The translations under genes and the position numbers were made by a program. From Candidatus Omnitrophota bacterium (GTDB lineage: Bacteria > Omnitrophota > Gorgyraeia > Zapsychrales > Zapsychraceae), in contig JAGQKV010000031.1 of assembly GCA_020429915.1 (NCBI GenBank), forward strand, positions 2,656 to 66,655: a stretch of 64,000 bases of DNA. Reading direction: 5' to 3'. Positions within the stretch are counted from its first letter, which is position 1. Every line of letters begins with the position of its first letter. Positions 7,971 to 64,000 of this stretch are shown here, one piece after another. The notes beneath the pieces were generated by a model. The model ran no database searches. It was not told the DNA's origin and saw only the letters and a list, made by a program, of their open reading frames with translations.

Positions 7971-8002
7971 TCGGGCCTGGGTGATCGTGTAATATAGAAG
8001 CC

Positions 8003-12515: not shown

Positions 12516-12524
12516 GCTACCGAT

Positions 12525-14915: not shown

Positions 14916-14916
14916 G

Positions 14917-22535: not shown

Positions 22536-22648
22536 CGATTTATCCTTTTAAGGTATTGTAATGACATGCCTAATGAAAGCAATCATTTTTTTTGCTGGTT
22601 TCCCTGTCTTAATTTCTGTACAATGATCAATCGTTGCAAGGAGTATGA

Positions 22649-23017: not shown

Positions 23018-23026
23018 GAGCCGCGC

Positions 23027-23305: not shown

Positions 23306-23360
23306 ACCCGGCCTTCGAGGAAATTTTTTAGTTCTCGATCTAGCCGTCCGTCCGAACATC

Positions 23361-23654
23361 ATGGCTAAATGCCCGAACTGTCACAGTCATCTTTCGATCA
23401 AGCAGGTCCTGACCGGACCGTTGCGGTGTCAGGAGTGCGGCAAATTATTGAAGTTTCCCCGCCACGAGTATCGAAACGTAACCCGCCCGGGATTTTACAT
23501 CGCGGTGTTTATCCTCGCCAATTCCGTGACGGTGGCGGATGCCCGCATGCGGTTTGCCATTAACGGAGTTCTCCTCGTGTTGTGGTTTATCTTCTTTAAG
23601 CGGTTCATCCGCTACATTCATGAAACCATGCTCGAGTTATCGGAGGATCAATGA
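23361..23654 (+). CDS. zinc-ribbon membrane protein (CPNC...CQEC plus 2 TM)
   Basis: The product MAKCPNCHSHLSIKQVLTGPLRCQECGKLL has a Cys4 ribbon and then two hydrophobic helices. I placed the start at the internal ATG 23361. Confidence 0.4.
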   Translation: MAKCPNCHSHLSIKQVLTGPLRCQECGKLLKFPRHEYRNVTRPGFYIAVFILANSVTVADARMRFAINGVLLVLWFIFFKRFIRYIHETMLELSEDQ

Positions 23655-29169: not shown

Positions 29170-29176
29170 CGCCTTC

Positions 29177-39980: not shown

Positions 39981-40011
39981 ATTTCACATCGAAATCTCTA
40001 TAATAAGTCGT

Positions 40012-42545: not shown

Positions 42546-42619
42546 GCGCCTGTAGCTCAGTTGGATAGAGCACCAGTCTTCGGAACTGGGTGTCAGGGGT
42601 TCGAATCCTCTCAGGCGCG
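42546..42619 (+). tRNA. tRNA-Arg (anticodon TCG)
   Basis: I folded it manually. The acceptor is GCGCCTG/CAGGCGC, the D-arm GCTC-AGTTGGATA-GAGC, the anticodon arm CCAGT-CTTCGGA-ACTGG (anticodon UCG) and the T-arm AGGGG-TTCGAAT-CCTCT, with discriminator G. Confidence 0.85.
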
Positions 42620-48367: not shown

Positions 48368-49702
48368 GTGACCTTCCACTTTATGACCCTTCATTCACCG
48401 ACATTCCGTCGTTCCGGAAAGGCGTTTCTTTTGCTTATGACGGGATTGACTCTCACCTCTCTGTGCGGGCGCACCGTGGTGCCGGTCCGGGCTCAATCTC
48501 AGTTGGGAGGAACCGGGGCATCCGACGCGAAGAGTAGCGAAACCTATCAGGAGTATCTGGCATTCTTCCGGGAAGTTTTCGATATCATGCGGGAGAATTA
48601 TTACAAGGATATCGATGAGGAAGACTACGACCGGTTTTTGCAAACTTTTGACCAGAAGATATTCGCCCAGCTTAAGGGGGAGGGGAAGTCGAATGACTTT
48701 GTTCGCTGGCGCAGCGCCGCATTTCTGGTCGACTTTCTGAAAGAAGACGACGATATTTTTTCCGCTTTTTATCCGCCGAAACCGGCCAAGGAGTACGAAG
48801 AAACTGCGCTGGGTAAGCGTATCGACCTTGGCCTGGAGGGAGAGCTGCTGCCGGTCGGTTTCCGGCTGACTTTCGTTGAGCCGCGCTCGAATGCCTACCA
48901 GCTGGGAATGCGGGAAAACGACTTGCTAGTCATGATCGATCAGGCAGAAGTGAGCGGTCTCAGCGAGGAGGAAGTGCGTGATCGCTTGCGGCCACTGGAA
49001 GATACGGTCGTGTCGCTGGTGTATTTGGACGGTCAAACCCGGGAGTCCAGGGGAGTCGATGTGGTTTCCGAAGAGTACTTCAAACAGGCGGTGTTCGACG
49101 TTCCCATTCCTGTGCCGGGGATTTATTGCCTGAAAATTGAGCGGTTTAACCGAAAAACTTTTGAGGATGTCTTTCGGTTTCTCACTTTTTATCGTCAACA
49201 TGGGCCGATCAAGGGGTTGATTATCGATTTGCGTGGAAATCCCGGTGGTCCGCCGTTGGCGGCCCGTGAAATCTCATCATTTTTCCTGCCGGCAGGAGAG
49301 GAATTTGCCTATTTTCAGAGGAACAACAAACCGAAGGCCGAATTGGATGTCCCCGAACTGCCCCAGGAACATCATTACGACGGCCCGCTGGCGATCCTTA
49401 TCGACGAGGGCAGCGGCAGTGCCTCGGAGCTTTTTTCAGGAGTTATGCAACAGCGCCGGCGCGCCGTTTTGCTAGGTGAAAACTCCGCCGGGCAGGTGTT
49501 TCTCAAAAGTATGTTTCCGCTGGAAGATGAATCTATGCTATTATTAGTTACCGCACGCGGCCACTATCCTGACGGCCAAGTCTTCAGCTTTCAAGGTTTA
49601 ACTCCGGACCGGCACGTGGCCAGCATGAATCAGGATGACATCCTCAAGTACGCGGCGACATACATTCTCTACGTGAACCAGAAAGACAACGCATCCCTAT
49701 GA
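48368..49702 (+). CDS. S41 family peptidase (C-terminal processing / tail-specific protease-like)
   Basis: It has a signal peptide and a PDZ-like middle. The catalytic region is IDLRGNPGGPPLAAREISSFF (Ser), with ...DEGSGSASE.... Confidence 0.72.
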   Translation: MTFHFMTLHSPTFRRSGKAFLLLMTGLTLTSLCGRTVVPVRAQSQLGGTGASDAKSSETYQEYLAFFREVFDIMRENYYKDIDEEDYDRFLQTFDQKIFAQLKGEGKSNDFVRWRSAAFLVDFLKEDDDIFSAFYPPKPAKEYEETALGKRIDLGLEGELLPVGFRLTFVEPRSNAYQLGMRENDLLVMIDQAEVSGLSEEEVRDRLRPLEDTVVSLVYLDGQTRESRGVDVVSEEYFKQAVFDVPIPVPGIYCLKIERFNRKTFEDVFRFLTFYRQHGPIKGLIIDLRGNPGGPPLAAREISSFFLPAGEEFAYFQRNNKPKAELDVPELPQEHHYDGPLAILIDEGSGSASELFSGVMQQRRRAVLLGENSAGQVFLKSMFPLEDESMLLLVTARGHYPDGQVFSFQGLTPDRHVASMNQDDILKYAATYILYVNQKDNASL

Positions 49703-50457
49703 AAAAGGCACCCGGCCTCAAGACGCTTCAGTCCGAAAAGGGCGCAGTAAATCAAGCGCGACTCCTGATCGTCGTGCCTGCCTATAATGAGGAAGGGAGT
49801 ATCCGCGCGGTGGTGTCCGATATCATTTTGTCTCCTTGGAATTTGGATGTGTTGGTTGTGAACGACGGATCGACGGACCAAACTTTTGAACAGGCGAGGG
49901 CCGCAGGAGTTAATGTGATTTCGCTACCGTTTAATCTGGGTATCGGCGGGGCGGTCCAAACCGGTTTTCAATTTGCCCTGCGTCAGGGTTACGATTTGGT
50001 GGTCCAAATGGACGGCGACGGCCAGCACGATGTCGATTTTCTCGGTACTCTGGTTAATCCCATATTGAACAATGAAGTGGATATGACGATAGGAAGCCGT
50101 TTTATCCCGCCGTATCTCGGCTATCAATCTTCGTTCGTGAGGAGGATCGGCATTAATTTCTTTGCCCGATTGTTAAGTGCTTTAACCGGATCCCCGGTGA
50201 CGGATCCGACCAGTGGATTCCGGGCCTATAACCGGAAAATGATCAATATTTTCGCCCGGTATTATCCGCACGATTTTCCGGAGCCGGAAGCTATCGTCGT
50301 GGCCGGGAGATACGGCGCGCGCATTCGTGAAGTCCCGGTGACCATGCGGGAGCGGCAAGCCGGTTCGAGTTCGATCCGTTATTTTAAAACGTTGTACTAC
50401 ATGCTCAAAGTGACACTCGCCATTTTACTGGGCCGGTTTAAGACCAAGAGGGGATAG
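49699..50457 (+). CDS. GT2 glycosyltransferase (polyprenyl-phosphate sugar synthase, GtrB/DPM1-like)
   Basis: The motifs LLIVVPAYNEEGSI...VVNDGSTDQT...QMDGDGQHD (DxD) are present. Confidence 0.75.
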   Translation: MKKAPGLKTLQSEKGAVNQARLLIVVPAYNEEGSIRAVVSDIILSPWNLDVLVVNDGSTDQTFEQARAAGVNVISLPFNLGIGGAVQTGFQFALRQGYDLVVQMDGDGQHDVDFLGTLVNPILNNEVDMTIGSRFIPPYLGYQSSFVRRIGINFFARLLSALTGSPVTDPTSGFRAYNRKMINIFARYYPHDFPEPEAIVVAGRYGARIREVPVTMRERQAGSSSIRYFKTLYYMLKVTLAILLGRFKTKRG

Positions 50458-50463
50458 CGCGAC

Positions 50464-50847
50464 ATGATCATCAAATTTATAACGGTGAGCGCAGGTTTGA
50501 TGATGGTTGTTTTTGTGCTCGAGTTGATCCGCAAAGAGCGTTTGACTTTTAAATACGCGTTTGCGTGGCTGGGTGTCGGTGCCTTGCTGGTTTTCTTTGC
50601 CGTTTTCGACGGGCTGTTGTATCAACTGGCATATGCTTTGGGATTTCAATTGCCCAGCAATTTTATATTCTTCAGTCTCTCCGGAGTTTTTGTGGTGTTG
50701 AGTTTCCTAATGACGGTTTTTTTGTGCCAGCAAAATGAGCGTAACGATTCCATGGCACAAAAAATCGGAATTCTTGAATTTGAGATCCGCCAACTGAAAG
50801 AAGAGCTTGAGCTAAAGGAAAGAGCGCATGAAAACCAAAAATCTTGA
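50464..50847 (+). CDS. DUF2304-like small membrane protein
   Basis: It has 3 TM helices and a C-terminal coiled coil (EFEIRQLKEELELKE). It lies downstream of a GtrB-like GT2, which is a recurrent pairing. Confidence 0.45.
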   Translation: MIIKFITVSAGLMMVVFVLELIRKERLTFKYAFAWLGVGALLVFFAVFDGLLYQLAYALGFQLPSNFIFFSLSGVFVVLSFLMTVFLCQQNERNDSMAQKIGILEFEIRQLKEELELKERAHENQKS

Positions 50848-51499
50848 ATTGCCCGGGGCTCAGGATTGGAACCATTACTGGGAACGGGGGCAAACCCAGC
50901 GCTTCACCCGTGTCAGCTGGTCCAAGCGGAGGATCATTCGGATGCTGCAGCCGTACTTGAAGACCGGGTGCCATGCGCTCGATGCCGGTTGCGGAAGCGG
51001 ATTCTTTTCACAATTCTTTTGCGAAAGCGGAATGCGCGCCACAGCCCTCGACTACTCGCGGTCTGCTCTTGAAATTGCCGGGTCCAAGACCCGGGGCCGT
51101 GCCAAACTGGTCCAGGCGAATTTGGTGGAAGATGACCTGTCTGTTAAGTTAACGGACCGTTATCACCTCGTTTTTACCGACGGACTTTTGGAGCACTTTG
51201 TTCCCGCCGACCAGGACCGTATTATCCGCAATTTAATGAGTATCCTCGTCGACGATGGCGTGATTGTCACCTTCGTTCCCAACCGCTGGTCGCCGTGGGA
51301 GCTCATCCGACCGCTTTATATGCCGGGCATAAAAGAAGACCCCTTCCGTTTGGGGGAGCTGGTCGACCTGCATGAGCGGAATCATCTTAAGGTCCTCGCC
51401 CGCGGCGGGGTCAATACGGTTCCTTTTGCTTTTTCCCCCGACGGACTCTTCGGTTCGGTTTTCGGGATGTTATTGTTTACCATTGCCAAATTACGATGA
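50828..51499 (+). CDS. class I SAM-dependent methyltransferase
   Basis: Motif I (ALDAGCGSGFFS) is present, as is motif post-I (…ALDYSRSALE). Confidence 0.7.
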   Translation: MKTKNLELPGAQDWNHYWERGQTQRFTRVSWSKRRIIRMLQPYLKTGCHALDAGCGSGFFSQFFCESGMRATALDYSRSALEIAGSKTRGRAKLVQANLVEDDLSVKLTDRYHLVFTDGLLEHFVPADQDRIIRNLMSILVDDGVIVTFVPNRWSPWELIRPLYMPGIKEDPFRLGELVDLHERNHLKVLARGGVNTVPFAFSPDGLFGSVFGMLLFTIAKLR

Positions 51500-52479
51500 C
51501 ACAACCATCCGTTGCGGTCGTCATTCCCGCTTTTAACGCTGAGCAGACCTTGCCTTTCTGTTTGCAGGCGGTAACATCTCAGAACATCCCCCCTCAGGAA
51601 ATTATCGTTGTGGACGACGGATCCTCAGACCGGACTTCGGCCGTGGCCGGTTCTTTTCCCGAAGTGCGCTGTGTGCGACAGGATAATGCCGGGCCGGCAG
51701 CCGCCCGCAACCGCGGTCAGCGCGAGACCGGGGCGGATATCGTTTTGTTCACGGATTCTGATTGTGTTCCGGCTCCCGATTGGGTGGCTGCGGCAGCGGC
51801 CGGGTTTGTGAGGGAAGATATCGGGGCTGTGGCCGGAAGCTACGATATCATCAATCCCGGGTCGCGGCTGGCTCGCTGCATTCACGCGGAGATTTTGTAC
51901 CGGCATCTGCGCTTGCTGCCGGAATATCCCCGGGCTTTCGGGAGTTTTAACGTGGCCATTCGGCGGGATGTCTATGTCGGGGTGGGTGGTTTTGACGAGT
52001 CGTATCCGGCGGCCTCCGGAGAGGATAATGACCTGAGCTACCGGATCCGGCGGGCCGGGTATAAGATCCGCTTCGATCCCCGTTCGCGGGTCGGCCATCA
52101 CCACCCGGAACGGGTCGTGCGTTATCTGCGGGAGCAGTTCCGGCACGGTTTCTGGCGGGTTAAAATGTACCGCGCACATCCGCATATGGCCGGGGGGGAC
52201 GATTATACTTTCTGGAAGGATATTGCGGAGGTGGGGTTGGCGGGATTGACAGGATTGGCGTTGCTGATTTTACCGTTCGGTCTGCCGGCTGTGTGCGTGG
52301 TCGTCTTGGGTGGAGCCCTCATGCTGCTGCAAGCAGGTTTCTGTTTCCGGATCTGTCCTAACATGTTTGACGGAATTTTTTACTCGCTGGTATTGTTTTT
52401 GCGTGCATTCGCGCGTGCCATAGGTTTCTCGTCGGGGATGTTGTCGTCATTCGGCCGCCGAAAAACAAAAAAAAGCTAA
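51496..52479 (+). CDS. GT2 glycosyltransferase with C-terminal membrane helices
   Basis: It has VVIPAFNAEQTL...VVDDGSSDRT...FTDSDCV (DxD) and two C-terminal TM segments. Confidence 0.72.
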   Translation: MTQPSVAVVIPAFNAEQTLPFCLQAVTSQNIPPQEIIVVDDGSSDRTSAVAGSFPEVRCVRQDNAGPAAARNRGQRETGADIVLFTDSDCVPAPDWVAAAAAGFVREDIGAVAGSYDIINPGSRLARCIHAEILYRHLRLLPEYPRAFGSFNVAIRRDVYVGVGGFDESYPAASGEDNDLSYRIRRAGYKIRFDPRSRVGHHHPERVVRYLREQFRHGFWRVKMYRAHPHMAGGDDYTFWKDIAEVGLAGLTGLALLILPFGLPAVCVVVLGGALMLLQAGFCFRICPNMFDGIFYSLVLFLRAFARAIGFSSGMLSSFGRRKTKKS

Positions 52480-52614
52480 AATTGGCTTGTGCCGATAGGG
52501 GCATATGCTAATATAAGGACGTGTTCAAGACCCTAGTCAGATTTTTCGAACCATATTTCGCTATAATTGGAAGGTCATATCTTTCAACAAGATCGATGTC
52601 GTGTCCAAACCGGG

Positions 52615-52633
52615 CCGGGGGACGCCCGGTTTT
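52615..52633 (+). terminator. possible intrinsic terminator (CCGGG-ggacg-CCCGG-TTTT)
   Basis: A short GC hairpin is followed by a T run, about 135 nt downstream of the GT2 stop. The stem is short. Confidence 0.3.
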
Positions 52634-52995
52634 GGCCGGGACAATGAGCCAGACCCATCTTCATCACGCCGCAACTCAGTCCATCCACTTGGGTTCACTT
52701 CATTCCGCCGCGTCTTTCGGATCTTGTTGGTGTTATCCGATGCTATTGAATTTCCTCCATTTTTTTCTTGCAGAATTAGTCAGACGGGCCGATTCCGTTT
52801 TGGACATATTGGCTAAAACTGTTTGCCGTGTTACGTCCACTGAATGTGAAATCCGTGTTTTTCCGGTAACCTGTGGCCGGGAAAATAGCGTTTTCTCGAC
52901 GAGAAAATTGTTCGCGTAGTGATTTTAAATTTATTAAGAAAAAAAAAGAATTTCATCTTGTATTTAGAGATACGTAACTATAAGATTATAACTAT

Positions 52996-53616
52996 ATGAT
53001 TTTGAAGAAGAAAGAAACTGCTGAGCAAAAGCTCCTTAAAATGATCGAGGCGTCTTCCGGAGATGCCGGCGCGGCGTCCCGTGCACAACGCAAAACGTCT
53101 CGCCAGCAAGATGCTTTGTCTCTGCTGAAGACGTTCAACAGTCTGTTGCTGATTTTGATTGTCGGGGTGGCCGTCCTTGTCGGTCTCGAGATCAAAAAGG
53201 GCATGGACATCATGGGAGCGGGCATAGATATCCAGGCGGAACGGGGGATGACAGACTCGATGGACGGTGACAAAGTGCATACGGTCCAAAAATTACCGTT
53301 TTATCTGGCCGGTGTAAACCGTCGCAACATTTTCCGGCCCTATGACGAACAGATCTTTGCCGACGTCAGCCCTGTTCAGGAGCTAATGACCATTACCCGC
53401 AAGACCGAAAATCTTCGTTTGGTAGGGATTTCCTGGATGGATCGCGTCGAAAGCGCCTCGGCGATGATTGAAGATACCGAAAAGCAGGTCACCTACTTCC
53501 TGCAAAAAGGTGAAAAAATCGGCAATATCGAAGTCAAGACTATCTACGCCGACAGCGTGGAACTTGCTCTTGAAAACGAGGAGATGATACTGAGATATGA
53601 CAAACCACAACTGTAA
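52996..53616 (+). CDS. bitopic membrane protein upstream of secretin (possible PilP/GspC-like accessory)
   Basis: The 206-aa product has a cytoplasmic N-terminus, one TM (LLLILIVGVAVLVGL) and a periplasmic domain. It overlaps the secretin start by 20 nt. The AT-rich upstream has TATAAGATTATAACTATATG. Confidence 0.35.
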   Translation: MILKKKETAEQKLLKMIEASSGDAGAASRAQRKTSRQQDALSLLKTFNSLLLILIVGVAVLVGLEIKKGMDIMGAGIDIQAERGMTDSMDGDKVHTVQKLPFYLAGVNRRNIFRPYDEQIFADVSPVQELMTITRKTENLRLVGISWMDRVESASAMIEDTEKQVTYFLQKGEKIGNIEVKTIYADSVELALENEEMILRYDKPQL

Positions 53617-55198
53617 AAAGACTGTACGACGGCGAGCATTTCTCCCGCTCTTGGGCGCCCTCGCGTTGGTTGCCGGTAATTCCACGTTCGCGGCGGCGCA
53701 GGCCCCGCGTCCGATCCAGGTAAAAAACTACGAAGAAGAGATACTTAAACGTATGCAGCGGACGATCACCCTGGATGTCCGGGATATGAACATCGTCGAC
53801 GTCATCAAGTTCCTGGCCCTGAAAGGGGATTTCAATGTGGTCATTTCCCCAACCGTCGAGGGAAGATCGACAGTCTTGTTGAACAGCGTGACCATTAAGG
53901 ATGCGCTTGATATCGTTATTATTTCCAATAACTTAGCGTATAAGATTCAGGGTGAGATTGTTCAGATCATGACTTCTGCCGAGTATGAATCGATGTTCGG
54001 TAAACGTTTTGGCGATCAGACGGTCGTGGCCATTGAGCGCCTGAATTATGCCAAGCCCAGTTACGCTCTGGCCGCGCTGGACAGCATTAAGAGCAACGTT
54101 GGGCGCATTATTATAGATGAAGACACCGGGTCGGTGGTTATGATCGACACCCCCGAATCCATCGCTAAAATGCGTCAGGCCATCCAGGAGATCGAAAAGC
54201 CTTTGGAAACATATATTTACACGCTCCAGTATGCCAGCGCGGACGTGGTGGCCAATAAGTTGCGCGCGCGCATTGATGCCAAGGCTGTCGGTTCGATCAC
54301 GCCCGATGAACGCTCGAACAAGCTCATCGTCCGGGCTTTTCCCGAACGCCGCCGCGAAATCGAAATGATCGTGAAGAAGCTCGACTCTCCCACAAAGGAG
54401 GTGCTAGTCGACGCACGTATTCTCCAAGTCGTTCTCAATCCGGAGTATGACGTGGGCATTGATTGGAACAAGGATTTTCGCAAGAGCGGTGACGATGAAT
54501 TGCGAAAGCTCCAATTTAACAACATTTATCTCAATGCCGACAATTTGTCCAATAGTGACAACCTGGCCAATACATTCGGTCAGGTTGCCTTCGGGGATAT
54601 CAATGTTGATTCATTTGAGCTGACTTTGCGCGCCTTGCGCCAAGTCAGCGAAACCAAGATCTTGTCCAATCCCAAAATCCTGGTGACCAATAATGAAGAA
54701 GCCAAGATTCACATCGGCGATACGGTTCCGTACATCATATCCACCACTTCGGGAACAGGAGACAATGCGATTACAAGCGAAGATGTCCGGTTTATTGATG
54801 TCGGTCTCAAACTCAACGTGACGCCGATCATCAATGACGAAGGCTTTGTGACCATGCGCCTGCGTCCGGAGATCTCCACTATTGTCGGTGTCGTCGAGTC
54901 ACAGGGCGGCGGCATCCCGCAGGTGAATAAGACCGAAGTGGAAACGACGGTCATGGTGCACGACGGGCACAGTATTGTCTTGGGCGGACTTAAAAAAGAT
55001 GACCGGGTCCACTCCAAGAAGGGCTTTCCGGCACTAATGGATGTTCCGGTCATGGGGGCTCTCTTTGGCCGGACATCCGATGAGTATGCTCAAACCGAGA
55101 TCGTTATATTTCTGACACCGCACGTTGTTAAAGGCCACGAAGATTACGCGCAGATGAATGGCAACATCAAACCTTTTAAATCGTATAGTAACGAATAA
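53597..55198 (+). CDS. outer-membrane secretin (T2SS GspD / T4P PilQ family)
   Basis: It has a signal peptide and an N0-like domain (NIVDVIKFLALKGDFNVVISPTVEGRSTVLLNSVTIKDALDIVIISNNLAY). The C-terminal secretin domain carries ...KILSNPKILVTNNEEAKIHIGDTVPY... and ...SIVLGGLKKD....IVIFLTPHVV. Confidence 0.8.
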   Translation: MTNHNCKKTVRRRAFLPLLGALALVAGNSTFAAAQAPRPIQVKNYEEEILKRMQRTITLDVRDMNIVDVIKFLALKGDFNVVISPTVEGRSTVLLNSVTIKDALDIVIISNNLAYKIQGEIVQIMTSAEYESMFGKRFGDQTVVAIERLNYAKPSYALAALDSIKSNVGRIIIDEDTGSVVMIDTPESIAKMRQAIQEIEKPLETYIYTLQYASADVVANKLRARIDAKAVGSITPDERSNKLIVRAFPERRREIEMIVKKLDSPTKEVLVDARILQVVLNPEYDVGIDWNKDFRKSGDDELRKLQFNNIYLNADNLSNSDNLANTFGQVAFGDINVDSFELTLRALRQVSETKILSNPKILVTNNEEAKIHIGDTVPYIISTTSGTGDNAITSEDVRFIDVGLKLNVTPIINDEGFVTMRLRPEISTIVGVVESQGGGIPQVNKTEVETTVMVHDGHSIVLGGLKKDDRVHSKKGFPALMDVPVMGALFGRTSDEYAQTEIVIFLTPHVVKGHEDYAQMNGNIKPFKSYSNE

Positions 55199-55206
55199 CA
55201 AACTTT

Positions 55207-55734
55207 ATGACAAAGGGCTTACATATGCGCCAAAGAGGACTTGAGATGAAAAGCAGCCACCATCCGACGATAATTGTGTGTCTTATGTGCAGCCTCATAC
55301 TCGGCTTGGTTGGAACCGCCGGAGCGCAACTCGAAGGCAAAGAGATTCGCAACCGCGAACACCAGACGCTCGATCTTTTGTCCAATATCGATACCTACAA
55401 TATCAACGATGAACGTCTGCGCATGGATGCGGCGAAGGCGCACTACAATATGGGCAACATATACTTTCAGAAGGGGTACTACGAGATCGCCGCGCGCGAG
55501 TACTATCAGGCGGTTACCCTGATGCCCAACGACCCCGACACGCATTTCAATCTCGCTTTTGTCAGTAGTGAGTATCTAAGGGATTTCAAGACGGCGCTAA
55601 AGCACTACAAAATGTACCTTTATCTGAACCCGGACGCTAAGGATCGCGCCTTCGTGAACGAAAAGATTATGCACGCCCAGTTGGAAATCCGGGGAACTCT
55701 GGACTCCATTCTGGAAAAAGATATCAATAAGTAA
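55207..55734 (+). CDS. TPR-repeat protein with signal peptide (pilotin/PilF-like?)
   Basis: It has an N-terminal hydrophobic segment and then TPRs (AHYNMGNIYFQKGYYEIAAREYYQAVTLMPNDPDTHFNLAFV...). It lies immediately downstream of the secretin. Confidence 0.55.
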   Translation: MTKGLHMRQRGLEMKSSHHPTIIVCLMCSLILGLVGTAGAQLEGKEIRNREHQTLDLLSNIDTYNINDERLRMDAAKAHYNMGNIYFQKGYYEIAAREYYQAVTLMPNDPDTHFNLAFVSSEYLRDFKTALKHYKMYLYLNPDAKDRAFVNEKIMHAQLEIRGTLDSILEKDINK

Positions 55735-55895
55735 CTTGAGTGAGTTGTCGTTTGTGTCATTGGCGCATTCACCATCGGTTGGCAAATTAACGCAATAACT
55801 TTGAGTGATCTACAGTAAATCGGATGATTTACCGCCTGAAAACTGTGTGATTCATCAGCCCATATGTTGTATCCCGGTCGGACCGGGCACAACGG

Positions 55896-57512
55896 GTGGT
55901 ATCATTCGGTAGGTCCTACAGTCACATGCGAAATTTATTTTTAGTCAATCTTCAGATCCCCTCAATATTATTTATATTATTGTTTTGCGGATCCGACGCC
56001 CTCGCCAGCAATCTCTCCGTGTCCAATGTCGCCATCGCCTCCCGTAATCCGTCAACCAAAAAGCTGACCGCCACGTTCGATCTTACCTGGGAAAACGCCT
56101 GGAAAACCAAAATCAACCACGATGCTGTATGGGTCACGCTCCGTCTGCATAAGGCAGGAGCCAATCCCGTGGCCAAGAAATTGTGCCCGTTGTCGGCCTC
56201 TGGTCTGAACCCCGCGGGTACGGGAACCGGCACATCCCCCAATATCGAAGTTTATGTTCCCGCGGACAAAGCCGGGGCGTTCTTCCGTTTATCCGACTAC
56301 GGCATCCGGCCTGACGTCGTTTCCCAGGGCGTACAACTGGAGATCGATTACGAAGCCTGCGGATTCGCGGCGGATGACTCGGTCTATCTAAGTGTCTTGG
56401 GGCTTGAGATGGTCTACATCCCGAAGGGTGCTTTCTATGCCGGTGACTATGGGACAAGTACGGCGGTTTTGACCGAAGGCAGCGCGGATACCGATCCGTG
56501 GCACCTTACATCAGCCGGGCCTTTGTCCGTTTCCAACCCGACCATGGACGGCTACCGGTATTCCGCCGTCGGCCACGCGGGCGAGGATGCCTCCGGCAGC
56601 GCCTTCTCGGTACCGGCCGCATTTCCCAATGGTTATAAGGCGTTTTACGTGATGAAATATGAGTTGACTGAGGGACAGTGGGTTGAATTTCTGAATTCAC
56701 TGCCATCCGCGGCGGCGCGTGCTCATCATGATTTGACCGATAATAATCACAAAAACAGCGACGCGGTACGTGCCAGAAACACTGTCAGTTGTTCCGGGTC
56801 TCCGGTAACCTGCTCGACACAACGGCCCTACCGGGCGGCAGGTTATTTGTCGTGGATGGATCTGGCGGCTTTTCTGGACTGGGCGGCCCTGCGCCCCATG
56901 ACTGAACTGGAATATGAAAAGGCCTCCCGCGGACCGGTCGTTCCGGAAGAGGGCGAATTTCCCTGGGGAGACCAAACGATAACCGCCGCAAACACCGTGA
57001 CGACAGGCGACGAAGGCGGGGCCGAACGCGTCCTGACAACGGGCGCTAACGCCCACTTCGGTAGCGCCGTAATCAGCGGCGGTGATTCCGTGTACGGTGC
57101 TGAATACGCATACGGCCCCTTGCGCCAGGGGATTTTCGCCGGTTCCGAATCCACCCGTGTTAGCGCGGGCGCCTCCTATTACGGTGTCATGGAGCTTTCC
57201 GGAAATGTATGGGAACGGACCGTGACCATCGGCAATGCCAGCGGTCGTAATTTTGCCGGTACACACGGTGACGGGATGCTTTCCACGGCAAGCGGTTTCG
57301 AGGGATACGCGAATCAATCCGATTGGCCGGGAATTAATCCTACGCCGGCCCGCGGAGTGGACGGCGCCGACGGATCGGGGTACCGGGGCGGAAGTTTTGC
57401 CGCGTCCCAGGGGACGCTGCGCGTATCCGACCGTTCCAGGGCCGCGGAGACCAACACCGCCGCATCTTCCGACAGCGGCGGCAGAGGAGTAAGGACTGAT
57501 GATGCCAATTGA
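55896..57512 (+). CDS. secreted FGE-sulfatase (SUMF1/GldJ/GldK-type) domain protein, paralog A
   Basis: It has a signal peptide. Strong FGE-family motifs are present: YVMKYELTEGQWVEFLN, ...GYLSWMDLAAFLDWAALRPMTELEYEKASRG (WxDAxAYxxW...PTEAEWE pattern), GNVWER and YRGGSF. A novel ~170-aa N-terminal domain precedes them. Confidence 0.7.
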   Translation: MVSFGRSYSHMRNLFLVNLQIPSILFILLFCGSDALASNLSVSNVAIASRNPSTKKLTATFDLTWENAWKTKINHDAVWVTLRLHKAGANPVAKKLCPLSASGLNPAGTGTGTSPNIEVYVPADKAGAFFRLSDYGIRPDVVSQGVQLEIDYEACGFAADDSVYLSVLGLEMVYIPKGAFYAGDYGTSTAVLTEGSADTDPWHLTSAGPLSVSNPTMDGYRYSAVGHAGEDASGSAFSVPAAFPNGYKAFYVMKYELTEGQWVEFLNSLPSAAARAHHDLTDNNHKNSDAVRARNTVSCSGSPVTCSTQRPYRAAGYLSWMDLAAFLDWAALRPMTELEYEKASRGPVVPEEGEFPWGDQTITAANTVTTGDEGGAERVLTTGANAHFGSAVISGGDSVYGAEYAYGPLRQGIFAGSESTRVSAGASYYGVMELSGNVWERTVTIGNASGRNFAGTHGDGMLSTASGFEGYANQSDWPGINPTPARGVDGADGSGYRGGSFAASQGTLRVSDRSRAAETNTAASSDSGGRGVRTDDAN

Positions 57513-59151
57513 TATGAGACCTGCCTTGCGATTCGTTCTGGGAACAATGACATCTTTAGCCCTCATTTTTCCGGGAACCGCGCTGGCCAATCACCTGCAA
57601 ATCGATAACTATGAGGTGACGGCGATCGACGAGGCCAGCAACATGATGACCTTTACCGGAGATTTCATGTGGGAAAACAGCTGGCGGAATGTCAACAGCA
57701 ACGACGCGGTCTGGGTCTTCGTCAAATATTCCCTCGACGGCGGAGCGACCTGGAACCACGCCAGCATGACATCCAGCGGACTCAATCCCATCGGCTTCGC
57801 CGCTCCGGCGGGCTTCCAGATCGTGGTTCCCAATGACGAGCGCGGATTTTTTCTGGAACCGACGAGCTTCAGCAGCGGTGATGTAAATGTCCAGGGGGTC
57901 AGATTTTCCTGGGATTATGCCCAGGACGGTCTTAGCGATGAACAGGCTATGGCGGCCAATACGATCACCAAGGTTTTCGGTATCGAAATGGTCAAGATTC
58001 CCGAAGGCGCCTTTTACGCGGGCGACGGAAACAGTTCCTCAGCGCATCGCTTTAAGCAAGGTTTGGGTGACAACGATCCGTGGTATATCGAAAGTTCCGC
58101 GGCAATCAATGTCGCCAACGCAGGTAGTGACGGATATTACTACCAAAGCGCCGGAGCCAGCGGAGAGAGTGCCACCGGATCCTCATTCCTGATACCCACG
58201 TCATTTCCCAAGGGTTACAGCGCTTATTATGTGATGAAGTATGAGTTGACTGAAGGGCAATGGGTCAGCTTTTTTAATACTTTAAGTTACGCGCAAAAGA
58301 TGAACCGCGATATTACGGCCGCCAGCCGTGGCGGCAAAAATGCCGATACGATCGTTAACCGCAACACGGTGAGTTGGGATTCCGGCAATCCGCGGGCACA
58401 GGCTAGTACGTCCCGGCCAGACCGCCCGGTGACCTACATCTCGTGGCCGGATTTACTGGCCTACGCCGACTGGGCGGGATTGCGGCCCGTTACCGAACTT
58501 GAGTACGAAAAAGCGGCGCGCGGCGTCGATGTCTTGCCAACAGCTGATGAATACGCCTGGGGCAAGTCGACGTACAACGACGCTCAGGCCGGTGAAATCT
58601 ATCCGAACGCCGACGAGACCGGTCAGGAGCAGATTTTCGACGGTGCGGCCAATCTTAACCGTAACGCGCTCAGCTGGTCATCGGGAGACGGACGGCCCGG
58701 CGGCCCGGCGGACGGACAGAAGGGGCCGCTGCGGGTCGGTATTTTTGCCGAGGACTCCACCAACCGGGTGACGAGCGGCGCCGGATTCTACGGCACCATG
58801 GAGTTGTCCGGCAACCTGGCCGAAATGGTGGTATCGGTCGGCCGTACGGAAGGGCGCAATTTTTTGGGTTCGCATGGCGACGGTATTCTCTCCAGCGCCA
58901 CCGGATATGCCGGTAACGCGACCAACATTGACTGGCCGGGGATTGATCCGGTCGATCCGAACCGCGGCGTGACGTCCACGGTCGGTTCGGGGACCCGCGG
59001 CGGGGACTTTCAATCCGCGGATGTCAGACTGTTCCAGATTTCCACCCGGACTAACGCTACGCGCGACCCGGATAGTGAGGGGTACTACCAGCGTTTCGAT
59101 CCGGCGTTCGGGGTATTCCAGGGGGGCCGTCTGGCTCGCACGGCTCCTTAG
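57499..59151 (+). CDS. secreted FGE-sulfatase-domain protein, paralog B (tandem duplicate of A)
   Basis: It is collinear with A, sharing the YVMKYELTEGQWVSFFN, ...YISWPDLLAYADWAGLRPVTELEYEKAARG, MELSGN and TRGGDF motifs and the same N-terminal domain (…WENSW…NHDAVWV…). It overlaps A by 14 nt. Confidence 0.7.
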   Translation: MMPIDMRPALRFVLGTMTSLALIFPGTALANHLQIDNYEVTAIDEASNMMTFTGDFMWENSWRNVNSNDAVWVFVKYSLDGGATWNHASMTSSGLNPIGFAAPAGFQIVVPNDERGFFLEPTSFSSGDVNVQGVRFSWDYAQDGLSDEQAMAANTITKVFGIEMVKIPEGAFYAGDGNSSSAHRFKQGLGDNDPWYIESSAAINVANAGSDGYYYQSAGASGESATGSSFLIPTSFPKGYSAYYVMKYELTEGQWVSFFNTLSYAQKMNRDITAASRGGKNADTIVNRNTVSWDSGNPRAQASTSRPDRPVTYISWPDLLAYADWAGLRPVTELEYEKAARGVDVLPTADEYAWGKSTYNDAQAGEIYPNADETGQEQIFDGAANLNRNALSWSSGDGRPGGPADGQKGPLRVGIFAEDSTNRVTSGAGFYGTMELSGNLAEMVVSVGRTEGRNFLGSHGDGILSSATGYAGNATNIDWPGIDPVDPNRGVTSTVGSGTRGGDFQSADVRLFQISTRTNATRDPDSEGYYQRFDPAFGVFQGGRLARTAP

Positions 59152-59263
59152 GGTTTCGACATTGCCCGGTACTTATGGTGGGCAAAATTTCATCCTTCCG
59201 GTACGGGGAGCTGAAACAAGTCGAACCATTTGGTTCAGATAACGGTTGGCACTTTCAGGTTTT

Positions 59264-62200
59264 ATGAGAAAATCCACAAAATCAGGCTGGTATCTCCATT
59301 TGCACAGGGCCGTGACGTGTGTCGTCGCGGTTCTGTTTATATTTGCGCAAATTCCGACGGTATCGTATGCGCAATTTACAGGTGGTCCCTTTAGCGGGGA
59401 CGAAGAATCATCCCTTGGTGATGATATCTATACGGGCGGGCCCAATTCGGGCCTTTCGAGTGGCACTTCCCCCAGCGCCGAGTCTTTGTCACACGGCGCT
59501 CCCACCAAACTGGTCTTCACACAATACCCTTCCGCAACAAAGCACAGCGTGGAATTTCGCCGCCAACCGATAATCGAAATCCGCGATGCCAATGACAACC
59601 TTGTCACAACCGACAACTCCACTCAAGTTACGTTGGATATCTTTAACAACCCCGGGGCCGGTGAGTTGCGTGGGACCACGACGCTTACCGCATCCGGTGG
59701 AAAGGTCGAGTTTACCGGCTTGTCCGTTACCACCGCGGGGGAGATGTATTCACTCATTGCCACGGCTCCCGGCCTGACATCGGCCATCTCGGATCCCTTT
59801 GATATCTTTCCGGGTACCGGTGTCAGGCTGGCAGCCGTATGGGATGATTCGGCAAATTCAGGAGACGGGGCCTTCACGATTTATGCATGGATTGAGTCCG
59901 ATGGTAACCGTATGCCTTTGGATGACGGGACCAATGCTATCTGTCGCGCGGCTACGTTGTACAACTCTTCCGGTGCAGGCGAACCAGGGGCTGGTGGAGA
60001 AACACCCGGTGGACGGTTGACGTTCGGGGAAAACCTCGCCCACGATGACACGCTACCGAACAATGCCAGAGACTGGTGTCAATCCGAAGAGTGGACGCCT
60101 TCCGACTTTCTCGATTCGTACTACATCAATGTTTCCGTACGGGACGAAGTGCCTACAGACTATTCCACATACGTAGCCCTACCGACCATTAAACCTTCAT
60201 TATCTGACATAGCTGAGAATTTTAACTGGGACCGCATCGAGGCCATTTTCGATGCGACCGACGACATCAATTGGGAAGACATCAGCGCCATCAAGGCCTC
60301 TACCGATACCATCAATTGGACGGATATCGAGACCCTGCGTTCCGACGTTACCTCTATAAAGGGTGTCACCGATTCGATGACGGCGGCCGGAATCAACTGG
60401 GATGATGTGGGAGTCATGAGTTCGGCCGATATCAATTGGGACGATATCATGCGCTTGACGGTGGCCGGTATCAACTGGACCGACTTCGATGTCTTGAGCG
60501 ACGCGGGCATCAACTGGGCGGATATTGCCGTCCTCAGTCTGGAGGGGATTAACTGGTCCGATCTTGAAGTGATGAGCGAGGCCGGCGTGAACTGGGAAAG
60601 TCTGAACGAACTGACCACCGCCGGCGTCAACTGGTTTGACATCGCCGTGATGAGCGGGGCCGGTGTCAATTGGGCGGATATCGACATCCTGAGTGACGCC
60701 AACATCAACTGGGCCGATCTGCAGTATATGTCCACGGCCTCCGTGAACTGGGATGACATTGCCAAGATGAGCGGGGTCGGGATCAATTGGGACGAGCACA
60801 TCAACTGGGATTCGCTCGCGCAATTAACCAACGCCGGCGTCAACTGGGATGACCTTGTCGAACTTTCCGAGGCCGGGGTGAATTGGGACGACATCGGAGT
60901 GATGTCCACGGCCGGCGTCAACTGGGCCGACATCGACGTGCTCAGCGACGCGGGAATCAATTGGGACGATATCGGCGCTCTGTCATTGGCAGGCATCAAC
61001 TGGGCCGATATCGATGTGTTGAGTGATGCCGGCGTGAACTGGTCCGATCTGACGGTCCTGACCATGGCCGGTATCAACTGGGCGGACATTGACGTATTAA
61101 GTGCGGCGGGGATCAATTGGGCCGACCTGGCCGCCATGTCGACCAGCGCCGTAAACTGGGATGATTTCCGGGTCCTGTCCGAGGCCGGTGTGAATTGGAG
61201 CGATCTGAACGCGTTGTCCACCGCCGGGATCAATTGGACCGACATCGGCGTTATGTCCGATGCGGGGATCAATTGGGCCAATATTCAGGCATTGAGCACG
61301 GCGGGCATCAACTGGGACGACATCAATGTCCTTAGCGACGCCGGCATCAACTGGAGCGATATCGGCGCGTTATCCGTTGCCGGAATTAATTGGCAGGATA
61401 TTGATGTCCTCAGCGACGCGGGTGTTAACTGGAATGATCTGCAGGCATTATCGACAGCGGGGATCAACTGGACGGACATCGATGTGATGAGCGAGGCCGG
61501 CGTCAACTGGTCGGGAATCCAGGCCCTCTCCGTTTCCGGTATCAACTGGACGGACATCGACGTGCTCAGCGAGGCGGGTATCAACTGGAGCGACATCGGC
61601 GCGTTGTCCACCGCCGGCGTGAACTGGCTCGATATCGATGTGCTCAGTGATGCGGGTGTGAACTGGTCCGATCTGCAGGCGTTATCGACAGCAGGCATTA
61701 ACTGGGATGACCTCAACGTACTGTCCGGGACCAACATTAACTGGAGTAATATTGCCGAGCTCTCCGCCGCCGGCGTGAACTGGACGGATATCGACGTGCT
61801 CAGCGGGGCAGGGGTGAATTGGGCGGATATTCAGCAATTATCGACGGCGGGCATCAATTGGTCGGATATTGACGTGCTCAGCGGGGCCGGAGTGAACTGG
61901 TCCGGCATTCAGGACTTGTCGACAGCCGGCATCAACTGGACCGATCTGGATGTTCTCAGCGAAGCGGGGGTCAACTGGTCGGGAATCCAGGCGCTCTCCG
62001 TTTCAGGGATCAACTGGACAGACATCGACGTGCTTAGCGACGCCGGTATCAACTGGGACGATCTGCAGGCGCTCAGTGTGGCAGGCATCAATTGGGCGGA
62101 CATCGACGTCATGTCCGACGCCGGAATCAACTGGGCGGATATCAATGTCCTGAGCGACGCCGGAGTGAACTGGTCGGGAATCCAGGACTTGTCCGTGGCC

Positions 62201-64000
62201 GGCATCAACTGGGATGACATCGATGTGCTCAGCGACGCCGGAGTCAACTGGAACGGTATTCAAGCCTTATCGACCGCGGGTATCAATTGGTCGGATGTCG
62301 ATGTGCTCAGCAGCGCCGGCATCAACTGGTCCGATCTGCAGGCTCTGACGACTACCGGTATCAACTGGTCCGATGTCGATATCCTCAGCGACGCGGGCAT
62401 CAATTGGTCAGATATCGAAGCCTTCTCTAAGGCAGGTATCAACTGGGCGGATATCGATGTCCTGAGCGATGCCGGTATCAACTGGTCCGACATCCAGGCC
62501 ATGACGGTTGCGGGTATCAACTGGTTCGACATCGATGTCCTCAGTGACGCCGGTATCAACTGGGCGGATCTGTCGGCGATGTCGACGTCTTCAATCAATT
62601 GGGATGACATTAATGTCCTGACCTCGGCGGGTGTGAACTGGACCGATCTCTCGGTGTTATCCAAGGCCGGTATCAACTGGGATGATTTCTCCGTTATGTT
62701 CGCGGCCAGTATCAATTGGGATGATATCAGCTCGTTGACCCGCTCCGGTGTCAACTGGTCGGATATTGATGTCATGAGTGACGCGGGTATCAATTGGGCG
62801 AATATCGGCGAGCTGTCTTTGGCCGGTGTCAACTGGGACGACCTGCAGTCGTTGTCGGATGCCGGAATTAATTGGACCGATATCAACGCCTTAAGCACCG
62901 CGGGTATCAATTGGACGGACATTGATGTCCTCAGCGACGCGGGCGTTAACTGGGCGGATATTGCCGTATTGTCCGCGGCGGGCGTGAATTGGGAAGACAT
63001 CGACGTACTCAGCGACGCCGGCATCAATTGGGCGGACCTGGAGGCATTGACGACCGCCGGAATCAACTGGACCGATATCGATGTGCTCAGTACAACGGGT
63101 ATCAACTGGTCGGGTATTCAGGCTTTGTCGGTGGCGGGCATCAACTGGACGGATATCGACGTCTTGAGCGAAGCGGGCATCAACTGGGCGGACATCGGCA
63201 GTTTGTCGGTGGCGGGCATCAACTGGGCAGATATTTATGTGCTGAGTGATGCCGGAGTGAATTGGGCGGATATCACCGTGATGTCGGCAACCGGGATCAA
63301 TTGGGATGATATCCAGGTCCTGTCGGATGCCGGAGTGAATTGGGCGGATATCAATGCCCTGTCGACCAGCGGAATCAACTGGACGGATATCGATGTTCTC
63401 AGTGAAGCAGGCGTGAATTGGGCGGATATCGCGGCGCTGTCGCTGAGCGGTATCAACTGGAATGATCTCGACGTGCTGAGTGATGCCGGAATCAATTGGT
63501 CCGGTATCCAGGCTTTGTCCGTCGCCGGAATCAACTGGGACGACATCGATGTGCTGAGCGATGCAGGCATCAACTGGGATGATGTCAACGCGATGAGCGT
63601 GGCCGGGATCAACTGGGATGACATCGGTGTTTTGAGTGAGGCGGGAGTCAATTGGTCGGATATCGCGGCGCTTAGCGTGGCCGGCATCAATTGGGATGAT
63701 ATCGACGCGCTCAGTACCGCCGGCATCAACTGGGCGGACATTGGCAGCATGTCCACGGCCGGGATCAACTGGACGGATATCGATGTGCTCAGCGGGGCCG
63801 GAATTAACTGGACCGATATTCAGGCCTTGTCCGTCGCGGGCATTAACTGGTCGGATATCGACGTACTCAGTGACGCCAACATCAACTGGCTCGGCATTCA
63901 GTCGCTGTCGGTCGCGGGTATCAACTGGACGGATATCGACGTGCTCAGTGACGCGGGTATCAACTGGGCGGACATTCAAGCCTTGTCGGTGGCCGGAGTA
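59264..64000 (+). CDS. giant secreted tandem-repeat protein (at least 1578 aa, 3' end beyond the window): signal peptide, ~320-aa N-terminal region, then ~95 copies of a 13-aa repeat INWxDIxxLSxAG
   Basis: It starts at ATG 59264 (MRKSTKSGWYLHLHRAVTCVVAVLFIFAQIPTVSYAQ). I hand-translated frame 2 continuously to the window end and found no stop. The only track ORFs over 60.2-64.0 kb are the minus-strand ones rejected below, which fits an incomplete + ORF running off the end, assuming the track omits ORFs that lack an in-window stop. From about 60.22 kb the protein is a 39-nt periodic array. Confidence 0.75.
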   Translation, partial: MRKSTKSGWYLHLHRAVTCVVAVLFIFAQIPTVSYAQFTGGPFSGDEESSLGDDIYTGGPNSGLSSGTSPSAESLSHGAPTKLVFTQYPSATKHSVEFRRQPIIEIRDANDNLVTTDNSTQVTLDIFNNPGAGELRGTTTLTASGGKVEFTGLSVTTAGEMYSLIATAPGLTSAISDPFDIFPGTGVRLAAVWDDSANSGDGAFTIYAWIESDGNRMPLDDGTNAICRAATLYNSSGAGEPGAGGETPGGRLTFGENLAHDDTLPNNARDWCQSEEWTPSDFLDSYYINVSVRDEVPTDYSTYVALPTIKPSLSDIAENFNWDRIEAIFDATDDINWEDISAIKASTDTINWTDIETLRSDVTSIKGVTDSMTAAGINWDDVGVMSSADINWDDIMRLTVAGINWTDFDVLSDAGINWADIAVLSLEGINWSDLEVMSEAGVNWESLNELTTAGVNWFDIAVMSGAGVNWADIDILSDANINWADLQYMSTASVNWDDIAKMSGVGINWDEHINWDSLAQLTNAGVNWDDLVELSEAGVNWDDIGVMSTAGVNWADIDVLSDAGINWDDIGALSLAGINWADIDVLSDAGVNWSDLTVLTMAGINWADIDVLSAAGINWADLAAMSTSAVNWDDFRVLSEAGVNWSDLNALSTAGINWTDIGVMSDAGINWANIQALSTAGINWDDINVLSDAGINWSDIGALSVAGINWQDIDVLSDAGVNWNDLQALSTAGINWTDIDVMSEAGVNWSGIQALSVSGINWTDIDVLSEAGINWSDIGALSTAGVNWLDIDVLSDAGVNWSDLQALSTAGINWDDLNVLSGTNINWSNIAELSAAGVNWTDIDVLSGAGVNWADIQQLSTAGINWSDIDVLSGAGVNWSGIQDLSTAGINWTDLDVLSEAGVNWSGIQALSVSGINWTDIDVLSDAGINWDDLQALSVAGINWADIDVMSDAGINWADINVLSDAGVNWSGIQDLSVAGINWDDIDVLSDAGVNWNGIQALSTAGINWSDVDVLSSAGINWSDLQALTTTGINWSDVDILSDAGINWSDIEAFSKAGINWADIDVLSDAGINWSDIQAMTVAGINWFDIDVLSDAGINWADLSAMSTSSINWDDINVLTSAGVNWTDLSVLSKAGINWDDFSVMFAASINWDDISSLTRSGVNWSDIDVMSDAGINWANIGELSLAGVNWDDLQSLSDAGINWTDINALSTAGINWTDIDVLSDAGVNWADIAVLSAAGVNWEDIDVLSDAGINWADLEALTTAGINWTDIDVLSTTGINWSGIQALSVAGINWTDIDVLSEAGINWADIGSLSVAGINWADIYVLSDAGVNWADITVMSATGINWDDIQVLSDAGVNWADINALSTSGINWTDIDVLSEAGVNWADIAALSLSGINWNDLDVLSDAGINWSGIQALSVAGINWDDIDVLSDAGINWDDVNAMSVAGINWDDIGVLSEAGVNWSDIAALSVAGINWDDIDALSTAGINWADIGSMSTAGINWTDIDVLSGAGINWTDIQALSVAGINWSDIDVLSDANINWLGIQSLSVAGINWTDIDVLSDAGINWADIQALSVAGV
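60220..64000 (+). repeat. tandem array of 39-nt (13-codon) in-frame repeats, with alternating A/B subtypes giving a 78-nt super-period; about 95 units within the window
   Basis: Near-identical units such as atcaactggacggatatcgacgtgctcagcgacgcgggt recur throughout. Consensus A is (G)INW(T/A/S)DIDVLSDAG and consensus B is (G)(I/V)NWSDLQALS(T/V)AG. Confidence 0.9.

Follow-up and report, generated by a model that had tools for sequence, protein, structure and literature searches.

A secretin, FGE-fold and giant repeat protein gene block conserved across the Omnitrophota

The Omnitrophota are widespread, ultra-small and uncultured bacteria that are thought to be predators or parasites. A 64,000-nucleotide stretch of DNA from a Candidatus Omnitrophota bacterium, called the window below, closes with six consecutive genes on the plus strand, g1 to g6, which extend from position 52996 to the window end. 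They encode a GspC/GspB-like membrane protein, a secretin, a tetratricopeptide repeat (TPR) protein, two paralogous proteins with the fold of the formylglycine-generating enzyme (FGE) and a giant protein composed of a 13-residue repeat. The first-pass annotation had described these same six co-directional genes, all of which proved to be present, as a candidate new surface or secretion module that could export or anchor an adhesin or act as a gliding-like machine, and had likened the FGE-fold pair to the GldJ and GldK/PorK proteins of Bacteroidota. The questions raised by the locus are whether the six genes belong together, what their products are and what they might do in concert.

The block is ancient and conserved across the phylum, and in relatives it is the 5' half of a supercluster resembling a type II secretion system (T2SS) or type 4 pilus (T4P). 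The reading we favour, which we regard as about equally likely to be right or wrong, is that g1-g6 export or anchor a long surface fibre by way of the secretin, the FGE-fold proteins taking part without catalytic activity.

Conservation and extent of the gene block

One genome per GTDB species was scanned and relatives of g5 were found in at least 541 genomes. The best 80 loci were taken and their open reading frames (ORFs) were classed by iterated hidden Markov model searches seeded with the window proteins. The order (AAA22)-g1-secretin-(TPR)-FGE-like-INW protein, in which INW denotes the repeat family of g6, was found in 56 of the 80 loci and most of the others were on contigs cut inside the block. 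The tightest link was between the FGE-like and INW genes, which were adjacent in 65 of the 80 loci. In several lineages the FGE-like reading frame runs right up to the INW start or past it, and two loci, L060 and L072, have both genes with no secretin within 8-10 kb upstream. For these reasons, the FGE-like/INW pair is considered the tightest unit of the block. Two FGE-like copies were the usual number (48 loci); 6 loci had a single copy and 2 had four (Table 1), so the copy number is evolutionarily flexible.

The glycosyltransferase (GT2) genes that precede the block were gone in 13 of the 56 full modules, an indication that the module travels on its own. The median identity to relatives was 54-62% for g2-g5, the highest value (62.5%) being that of the secretin, compared with 49-60% for neighbouring housekeeping-type genes. 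Few envelope loci of the Omnitrophota are conserved as well as this block.

The genes are closely spaced in the window. There are overlaps of 20 nt between g1 and g2 and 14 nt between g4 and g5, and g2 is separated from g3 by 8 nt. The gaps between g3 and g4 (about 160-190 nt) and between g5 and g6 (112 nt) are longer, and promoter-like matches were found in these 110-190 nt spacers ahead of g4 and g6. No convincing terminator was found in any spacer between g1 and g6 in the window, nothing that would divide the genes into different operons by strong terminators. The proposal of a single locus that recurs in relatives has thus been borne out.

The contigs of relatives (L007, L088, L089, L090, L091 and the P0132 contig) are the source of all the downstream data. 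In these six contigs, the INW gene is followed by a gene designated unk435, whose product starts with a signal peptide, continues into a periplasmic region and has a transmembrane (TM) anchor at the C-terminus, and then by the genes of an F-type ATPase, all co-directional and mostly with short gaps. The ATPase genes are arranged in the order alpha, epsilon, c, a 75-aa membrane protein, a b/delta fusion, gamma and beta, and no a subunit was recognisable in the clusters downstream of the INW gene. Behind the ATPase, five of the six contigs encode a GspE/PilB protein that has an MshEN domain, then GspF and pseudopilins of the T2SSG type; the sixth (P0132) ends just past the ATPase genes. A Peptidase_MA_2 protein is encoded between GspF and the pseudopilins in four of these five contigs and is absent in L007. 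In L007 no gap between g1 and gspF exceeds 65 nt, and about 120 nt separate the pseudopilin gene from the gene before it. Since the GspE, GspF, pseudopilin and F-ATPase genes lie behind the INW gene in relatives, g1-g6 are the 5' half of a larger cluster. The six-gene order is real, and the locus is more than a secretin module on its own. Within the window itself, no T2SS/T4P ATPase, pilin or type IX secretion system (T9SS) gene was recognised.

The alpha and beta subunits of the ATPase pass the ordinary AtpA and AtpD cut-offs of NCBIfam, with scores above those for the Mycoplasma gliding-ATPase models. Judged by these scores, the published label 'type 2/3-like, non-respiratory' sits uneasily with the enzyme. 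In three loci a stand-alone OSCP/delta-like protein of about 120 aa has its gene ahead of the GT2 genes, a long way from the F-ATPase cluster (Table 1).

An alternative explanation is that the adjacency is largely historical, with g1-g3 being the secretin part of a type 4a pilus or T2SS and g4-g6 an unrelated envelope system, for example a periplasmic or S-layer-like scaffold with a different export route. The spacers with promoter-like matches before g4 and g6 and the two loci without a nearby secretin would be expected on this explanation, as would the observation that unrelated upstream genes (LplA, S41 peptidase, GT2, DUF2304, GT2) are also conserved in order. We consider it unlikely, because the order from the secretin to the INW gene persists in the 13 loci that lack the upstream context, and because g4-g6 lie between the secretin and the GspE, GspF and pseudopilin genes of one tightly packed co-directional cluster (six contigs), an odd place for an unrelated insertion found phylum-wide.

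Proteins encoded by the block

The g1 protein has an N-terminal cytoplasmic tail, a single TM helix (about residues 48-66) and a periplasmic domain. It matched the Pfam T2SSC family, the HR domain of GspC, with E = 1.9e-5 and 24.9 bits, under the cut-off of 27, and the NCBIfam GspC_delta model with E = 0.0023; the T2SSC match of the ortholog in locus L003 was just 0.035. Orthologs of g1 are located directly 5' of the secretin gene in 56 of the 80 loci and, in 26 of these 56, are preceded by a gene for an AAA22 ATPase similar to GspA, ExeA and MshM (TIGR03015-like, 188 bits). The g1 protein is probably the docking partner of the secretin. The site of the ATPase gene corresponds in the window to a 516-nt gap (52480-52995), in which a search for a GspA-like ATPase pseudogene found no remnant. 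An ORF in this gap (52521-52919) had matches in L005 and L006, two contigs from the same population, and in no other of the loci L001-L089.

Pfam matches to Secretin (PF00263, 6.8e-49) and, over two stretches, to Secretin_N (PF03958, 4.8e-24) mark g2 as a clear secretin. Its scores were below the NCBIfam cut-offs for PilQ (250.3 vs 284.35), GspD (249.6 vs 351.35) and MshL (178.5 vs 250.2), and single out none of the three. The g3 protein matched TPR_11 in Pfam (4.9e-12) and, weakly, PilW, Tgl and PrsT in NCBIfam. Its orthologs always directly follow the secretin in relatives, the position of a pilotin or of an MshN/PilW-like protein.

The g4 and g5 proteins are 42% identical over their full length and consist of an N-terminal beta-sandwich domain joined to an FGE-sulfatase-like domain (PF03781; 1.3e-10 for g4 and 6.8e-16 for g5). 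An AlphaFold2 (AF2) model of g5 based on a 33-sequence alignment had a predicted local distance difference test (pLDDT) score of 48.7, and the beta-sandwich domain (residues 31-166, about 135 residues) was the only part that was folded. A Foldseek search of the PDB with this model returned no significant match. The nearest solved relatives by sequence or profile were true FGEs, CalU17, pFGE and EgtB, with E values of about 5e-9 for the T. curvata and S. coelicolor FGEs and 2e-4 for pFGE. The NCBIfam EgtB and SenA models matched the FGE-like part alone, at 26-28 bits compared with cut-offs of 360-420. No domain beyond the beta-sandwich and the FGE-like part was detected in the Pfam and NCBIfam scans, and hence no separate metal-binding domain of the EgtB kind.

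There were 2,934 homologs of g5. Among the best 120, which were 58-98% identical, all source names that carry a taxon were Omnitrophota, and one source was given just as 'hydrothermal vent metagenome'. The median identity of the family is 58% and more than 100 alignment columns are invariant, including the first residues of the mature protein. None of the invariant columns is a cysteine. The Cys-pair motif of FGE, ..GGS[FW]xCxxxxC.., KGGSFLCHESYCNRY in the enzyme, is replaced by RGGDFQSADVRLF in g5 and by RGGSFAASQGTLR in g4. Where the T. curvata FGE has KGGSFLCHESYC, g5 reads RGGDFQSAD, and the RGGSF motif of g4 is followed by AASQGTL (RGGSFAASQGT), with no Cys pair. The RGGx[FW] motif was kept in 137 of the 152 FGE-like copies from the surveyed loci; a cysteine of any kind was near the motif in three of these 137 and the CxxxxC spacing of true FGEs in none. 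No sulfatase domain was found in the scanned genes of the window, nor in the precomputed Pfam assignments for the gene calls of about ten relatives.

The FGE-like copies that were inspected across lineages have signal peptides of the signal peptidase I type, ending in A ahead of a mature sequence NNLxISN, with no conserved lipobox cysteine; in g4 the end is ALA, followed by SNLSVSN. An NCBIfam scan at E<=10 matched no GldJ, GldK or PorK model to g4 or g5, only weakly SenA and EgtB, a negative result that relies on the GldJ and GldK models being part of that library, as we take them to be.

With no Cys pair, no sulfatase neighbour, no lipoprotein signal and no match to the GldJ/GldK/PorK models, g4 and g5 are predicted to be non-catalytic and, on these sequence criteria, are neither FGEs nor members of the GldJ/GldK/PorK family. 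Ordinary FGEs with an intact Cys pair next to sulfatase genes, which the first-pass annotation had named as evidence against its proposal, were not found. The proposed kinship with GldJ and GldK/PorK is not supported, PF03781 being the one feature in common.

A gliding apparatus was considered nonetheless, in which g4 and g5 would form a ring or track below the outer membrane like PorK/GldK or GldJ, and g6 would be a mobile adhesin like SprB, possibly powered by the F-type ATPase. GldJ, GldK and PorK themselves lack the catalytic cysteines. The shared PF03781 domain without these residues, the pairing with a giant repeat protein and the very high conservation of g4 and g5, which would suit a structural ring subunit, are in keeping with such an apparatus, and a role in motility was suggested for the neighbouring ATPase/pilus cluster (Seymour et al., PMC10066038). 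We nevertheless judge it quite unlikely, since g4 and g5 are not lipoproteins and matched none of the relevant models, the associated machinery is of the secretin/T2SS type, and the ATPase alpha and beta subunits score as ordinary AtpA and AtpD, with higher values than on the Mycoplasma gliding-ATPase models. No PorL/M/N- or GldL/M/N-like gene, nor sprA, was recognised in the window scans; the 80 loci were screened for the module families only, and T9SS genes were not specifically sought there. The gene calls of about ten relatives list Pfam families of T2SS/T4P, F-ATPase and the upstream glycosyltransferase context, together with some unassigned proteins.

The g6 protein begins with a signal peptide and about 320 residues containing two immunoglobulin (Ig)-like domains, followed by a strict array of a 13-residue repeat, A-G-[IV]-N-W-x-D-[IL]-x-[VA]-[LM]-S-x, in which N and W are invariant. 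The spacing from one NW to the next was exactly 13 in 91 of 95 cases. Tandem Repeats Finder reported periods of 39 and 78 nt in the DNA, with copies only 60-70% identical, so the repeat is old and has been kept at the protein level, rather than being a recent expansion. AF2 modelled residues 1-620 with two Ig-like domains (pLDDT 70-93), for which Foldseek found tandem Ig and Fab-like domains. The first of the two is a module that occurs in tandem repeats on pseudopilin-headed proteins of other bacteria. The INW unit was modelled as a 9-residue helix and a 4-residue turn with pLDDT of about 45, a low-confidence lead.

Window positions 52,001-64,000 match ENA contig WANG18-1_SAMN08389259 scaffold_21 at 12,000 of 12,000 bases, and on the ENA scaffold (L005) g6 can be followed through a run of N in the scaffold to a length of at least 3,300 aa. 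The gene was not called there (L005:11745-21652, window 59243 onward); instead, seven short, spurious minus-strand ORFs were called within the repeat. Most of the contigs surveyed from metagenome-assembled genomes end inside the g6 gene. Because contigs break inside the gene and, on L005, antisense ORFs were called in its place, the INW family is probably under-annotated, and its length under-estimated, in such genomes. An ortholog in GCA_964572155.1, located on a 1.34-Mb contig exactly between g5 and the next gene, has 8,087 aa and about 570 repeats, a number extrapolated from the terminal stretches. In two short orthologs that are complete (P0123, 868 aa; P0132, 900 aa), the signal peptide and the two Ig-like domains lead into the INW array, which is followed by a stretch rich in Ser/Thr and by a C-terminal coiled coil. 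The C-terminal motif was ..VVVK[AST][WY][YF]ES[ED] in five proteins and ..AVVTAWME in P0132. The coiled coil, and the lack of TM segments in the orthologs, were judged by reading the translated stretches rather than with prediction programs.

The 13-residue INW repeat is new and has no convincing counterpart among the curated Pfam families, in searches that covered the 1,578 aa of the window protein and fragments. Ntox33, ALTTAQ_rpt, Thiolase_C_1 and Lysostaphin_N gave matches that were dismissed as artefacts of summing over repeats, since none of the individual stretches passed. With a 130-aa piece, ALTTAQ alone held its whole-protein cut-off (26.7 vs 26.4 bits) and Ntox33 fell below its own. 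No enzyme domain was recognised in the window g6 by Pfam or NCBIfam. An exhaustive search of 1.84 billion cluster representatives found only 424 proteins at E<=0.001 and 24 at E<=1e-30, and fragments make up the majority. All named members of the ten INW clusters that were looked up belong to the Omnitrophota. The repeat would thus appear to be a rare family, restricted to the phylum as far as the source names show.

The close association of the FGE-like and INW genes also allows for another explanation, in which g4 and g5, as members of the SUMF1/EgtB/PvdO superfamily, would be active enzymes with a chemistry of their own. They would modify the INW repeats post-translationally, for instance at the invariant Asn, Trp or Asp, or act on some other substrate in the periplasm, and the block would be a maturation-plus-export operon. 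In favour of this, the linkage is the tightest in the block, the conservation is enzyme-like, with D, E, R, W and G abundant in the invariant columns, the same target motif occurs hundreds of times in each giant protein, and true FGEs are the closest solved structures in sequence. The family-wide loss of both catalytic cysteines, with no CxxxxC in any motif-bearing copy, the lack of a detected EgtB-like metal-binding domain and the fact that no chemistry can be proposed from the sequence make this explanation distinctly improbable.

Proposed function and surroundings

In the favoured reading, fibre export or anchoring through the secretin, the g1, g2 and g3 proteins would build and dock an outer membrane pore, joined in about half of the lineages by the GspA/MshM-like ATPase. 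Sec signal peptides are present on g4, g5 and g6, and the first Ig-like domain of g6, the module shared with pseudopilin-headed proteins, is of the adhesin type. The g6 protein would be a Sec-exported fibre comprising two Ig-like domains, hundreds of INW repeats and a coiled-coil C-terminus, which may be passed through the secretin or anchored at it and serve as a long filament for attachment to other cells. The g4 and g5 proteins would be periplasmic or secreted proteins with a C-type-lectin-like FGE fold that are dedicated, non-enzymatic partners of the fibre, perhaps acting as a chaperone, adaptor, cap or binding module. The role in surface adhesin export suggested by the first-pass annotation is still the best reading of the block.

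Several observations weigh against this assignment, 1) the passage of g6 through the secretin and its exposure at the surface are inferences, as is the role of g4 and g5, 2) giant adhesins elsewhere use, to our knowledge, type I, type V or type IX secretion systems and not secretins, 3) more than 100 invariant residues in g4 and g5 are unusual for passive binding proteins and would fit an enzyme or a core structural ring, 4) the linkage to GspE, GspF and pseudopilin genes downstream is known from the contigs of relatives, 5) AF2 modelled both the FGE-like domain and the INW repeats with low confidence and 6) the conserved order of the unrelated upstream genes means that synteny alone overstates functional coupling.

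A bolder proposal, tentative and on balance doubtful, is that the whole supercluster encodes a new envelope-spanning organelle of the Omnitrophota in which a T2SS-like piston, perhaps with a rotary ATPase, would extrude, anchor or move a cell-length fibre made of a helix-turn INW solenoid, and the catalytically dead FGE-fold proteins would form a ring, adaptor or tip. It would take in the GspA-like ATPase, g1, the secretin, the TPR protein, the FGE-fold pair, the INW fibre (to about 8,000 aa), the tail-anchored unk435, the F-ATPase lacking a recognisable a subunit, and GspE, GspF and the pseudopilins. Such an organelle would serve in prey or host attachment or in surface motility.

Three of the six proteins of the block are without known function and one represents a new repeat family. 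The block points to specific proteins that may form an attachment fibre and export it.

The coordinates of the features are given in Table 1. The GT2 group directly upstream was kept in 43 of the 56 relatives with the full module. In the dcw cluster, ftsA is followed by a 158-aa ORF and the next large ORF encodes a class-V aminotransferase; there is no FtsZ-sized gene at the usual place. Elsewhere, the window encodes a nucleoside transporter, a helicase, MsrB, glycine-cleavage proteins, LplA and an S41 peptidase.

Table 1. Positions of the genes of the block and of other features in the window and in the contigs of relatives
Feature	Position	Strand	Description
g1	52996-53616	+	206 aa; bitopic inner-membrane protein, GspC/GspB/PilP-HR-like
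g2	53597-55198	+	533 aa; outer-membrane secretin
g3	55207-55734	+	small TPR protein with N-terminal signal or anchor sequence
g4	55896-57512	+	secreted FGE-fold protein, PF03781; likely true start ATG 55926
g5	57499-59151	+	second secreted FGE-fold paralog, PF03781
g6, 5' part	59264 (ATG) to beyond 64000	+	giant secreted repeat protein; at least 1,578 aa inside the window
F-type ATPase cluster, unusual order	L007:13933-19336; L088:11325-16746; L089:2973-8396; L090:10522-16106		downstream of the giant gene in relatives
Four tandem FGE-like paralogs before INW gene	L079:7079-13591; L084:7022-13558
Stand-alone OSCP/delta-like protein	L003:1746-2108; L047:659-1018; L051:131-505
dcw cluster	6652-22182 and 22194-24793		MraW, PBP transpeptidase, MurE, MurF, MraY, MurD, FtsW, MurG, MurC, FtsA
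Two adjacent ORFs	27592-30247		525 and 356 aa; no Pfam match at E<=1e-4
Glycosyltransferase genes further upstream	38532-41577		PMT_2-like glycosyltransferase and GT2-methyltransferase fusion
tRNA gene	42546-42619		only Rfam match in the window
GT2 group	49699-52479		GT2-DUF2304-methyltransferase-GT2, directly upstream of the module

Comparison with known systems

In Omnitrophota, type-4a pilus clusters often adjoin a 'non-respiratory' F-type ATPase, and attachment to or motility on hosts was suggested for this combination (Seymour et al. 2023, PMC10066038). That cluster is very probably the same supercluster as the one to which g1-g6 belong, and has GspE/PilB with MshEN, GspF/PilC and pilin-like genes beside the F-ATPase, as in L007 and L088-L091. 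The main text of PMC10066038 uses none of the words secretin, PilQ and sulfatase, and the paper's section on the cluster has no 13-aa repeat protein. A literature search for the combination of secretin and FGE-sulfatase, and for formylglycine in Omnitrophota, found nothing relevant. Of the supercluster, the pilus/F-ATPase half is published; the secretin and the sulfatase-type proteins go unmentioned in that main text.

Giant genes near T2SS/T4P-like loci of Omnitrophota have been described as 'Archaeovorins', with a proposed role in prey attachment (West-Roberts et al. 2023 preprint; 2026 complete-genome preprint). The proteins of this type exceed 25-30 thousand aa, with many TM helices and SecA-DEAD, dockerin or enzyme domains, and their locus is Tad/T2SS-like with gspD/E/F and rcpC (West-Roberts et al. 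2023; 2026 preprint). The g6 orthologs, in contrast, have 868-8,087 aa and are almost wholly one 13-aa repeat in the stretches read. Archaeovorins are a different class of protein at a different locus, and 'secretin', 'sulfatase' and 'FGE' are absent from the texts of both reports.

The block shares with the T2SS (Gsp/Exe/Out) a secretin that carries Secretin_N domains, a bitopic protein with a putative HR domain encoded directly upstream, as are GspC and GspB/OutB, the GspA/ExeA/MshM-like AAA ATPase upstream in the 26 of 56 relatives and, in the same co-directional cluster of relatives, GspE, GspF and T2SSG-type pseudopilins. It differs in that the secretin and the ATPase are below every equivalog cut-off, no GspL or GspM was recognised, and the FGE-fold pair, the giant repeat protein, unk435 and the whole F-ATPase set interrupt the cluster. 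We know of no T2SS substrate that approaches the candidate cargo g6 in size.

The best solved-structure sequence matches of g4 and g5 are FGE/SUMF1 enzymes, with which they have the RGG[SD][FW] motif in common. Unlike these enzymes, they are without the Cys pair family-wide, have no sulfatase genes nearby and carry an extra N-terminal domain. The active site has also been lost in pFGE/SUMF2 and in PvdO.

The GldJ and GldK/PorK proteins of Bacteroidota, which act with SprB, likewise have an FGE-sulfatase-family domain without the catalytic cysteines, occur as paralogous copies and are associated with a giant repetitive protein, at the surface in Bacteroidota, and an outer membrane export machine. 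In contrast to these proteins, g4 and g5 are not lipoproteins, match no such model and have the additional N-terminal beta-sandwich; the machinery beside g4-g6 is secretin/T2SS-like rather than a T9SS, and the repeats of SprB are unrelated to the 13-aa unit of g6. The Omnitrophota block would thus be a second, independent case, besides the T9SS of Bacteroidota, in which dead FGE-fold proteins have been recruited to an outer membrane machine with a giant repeat protein.

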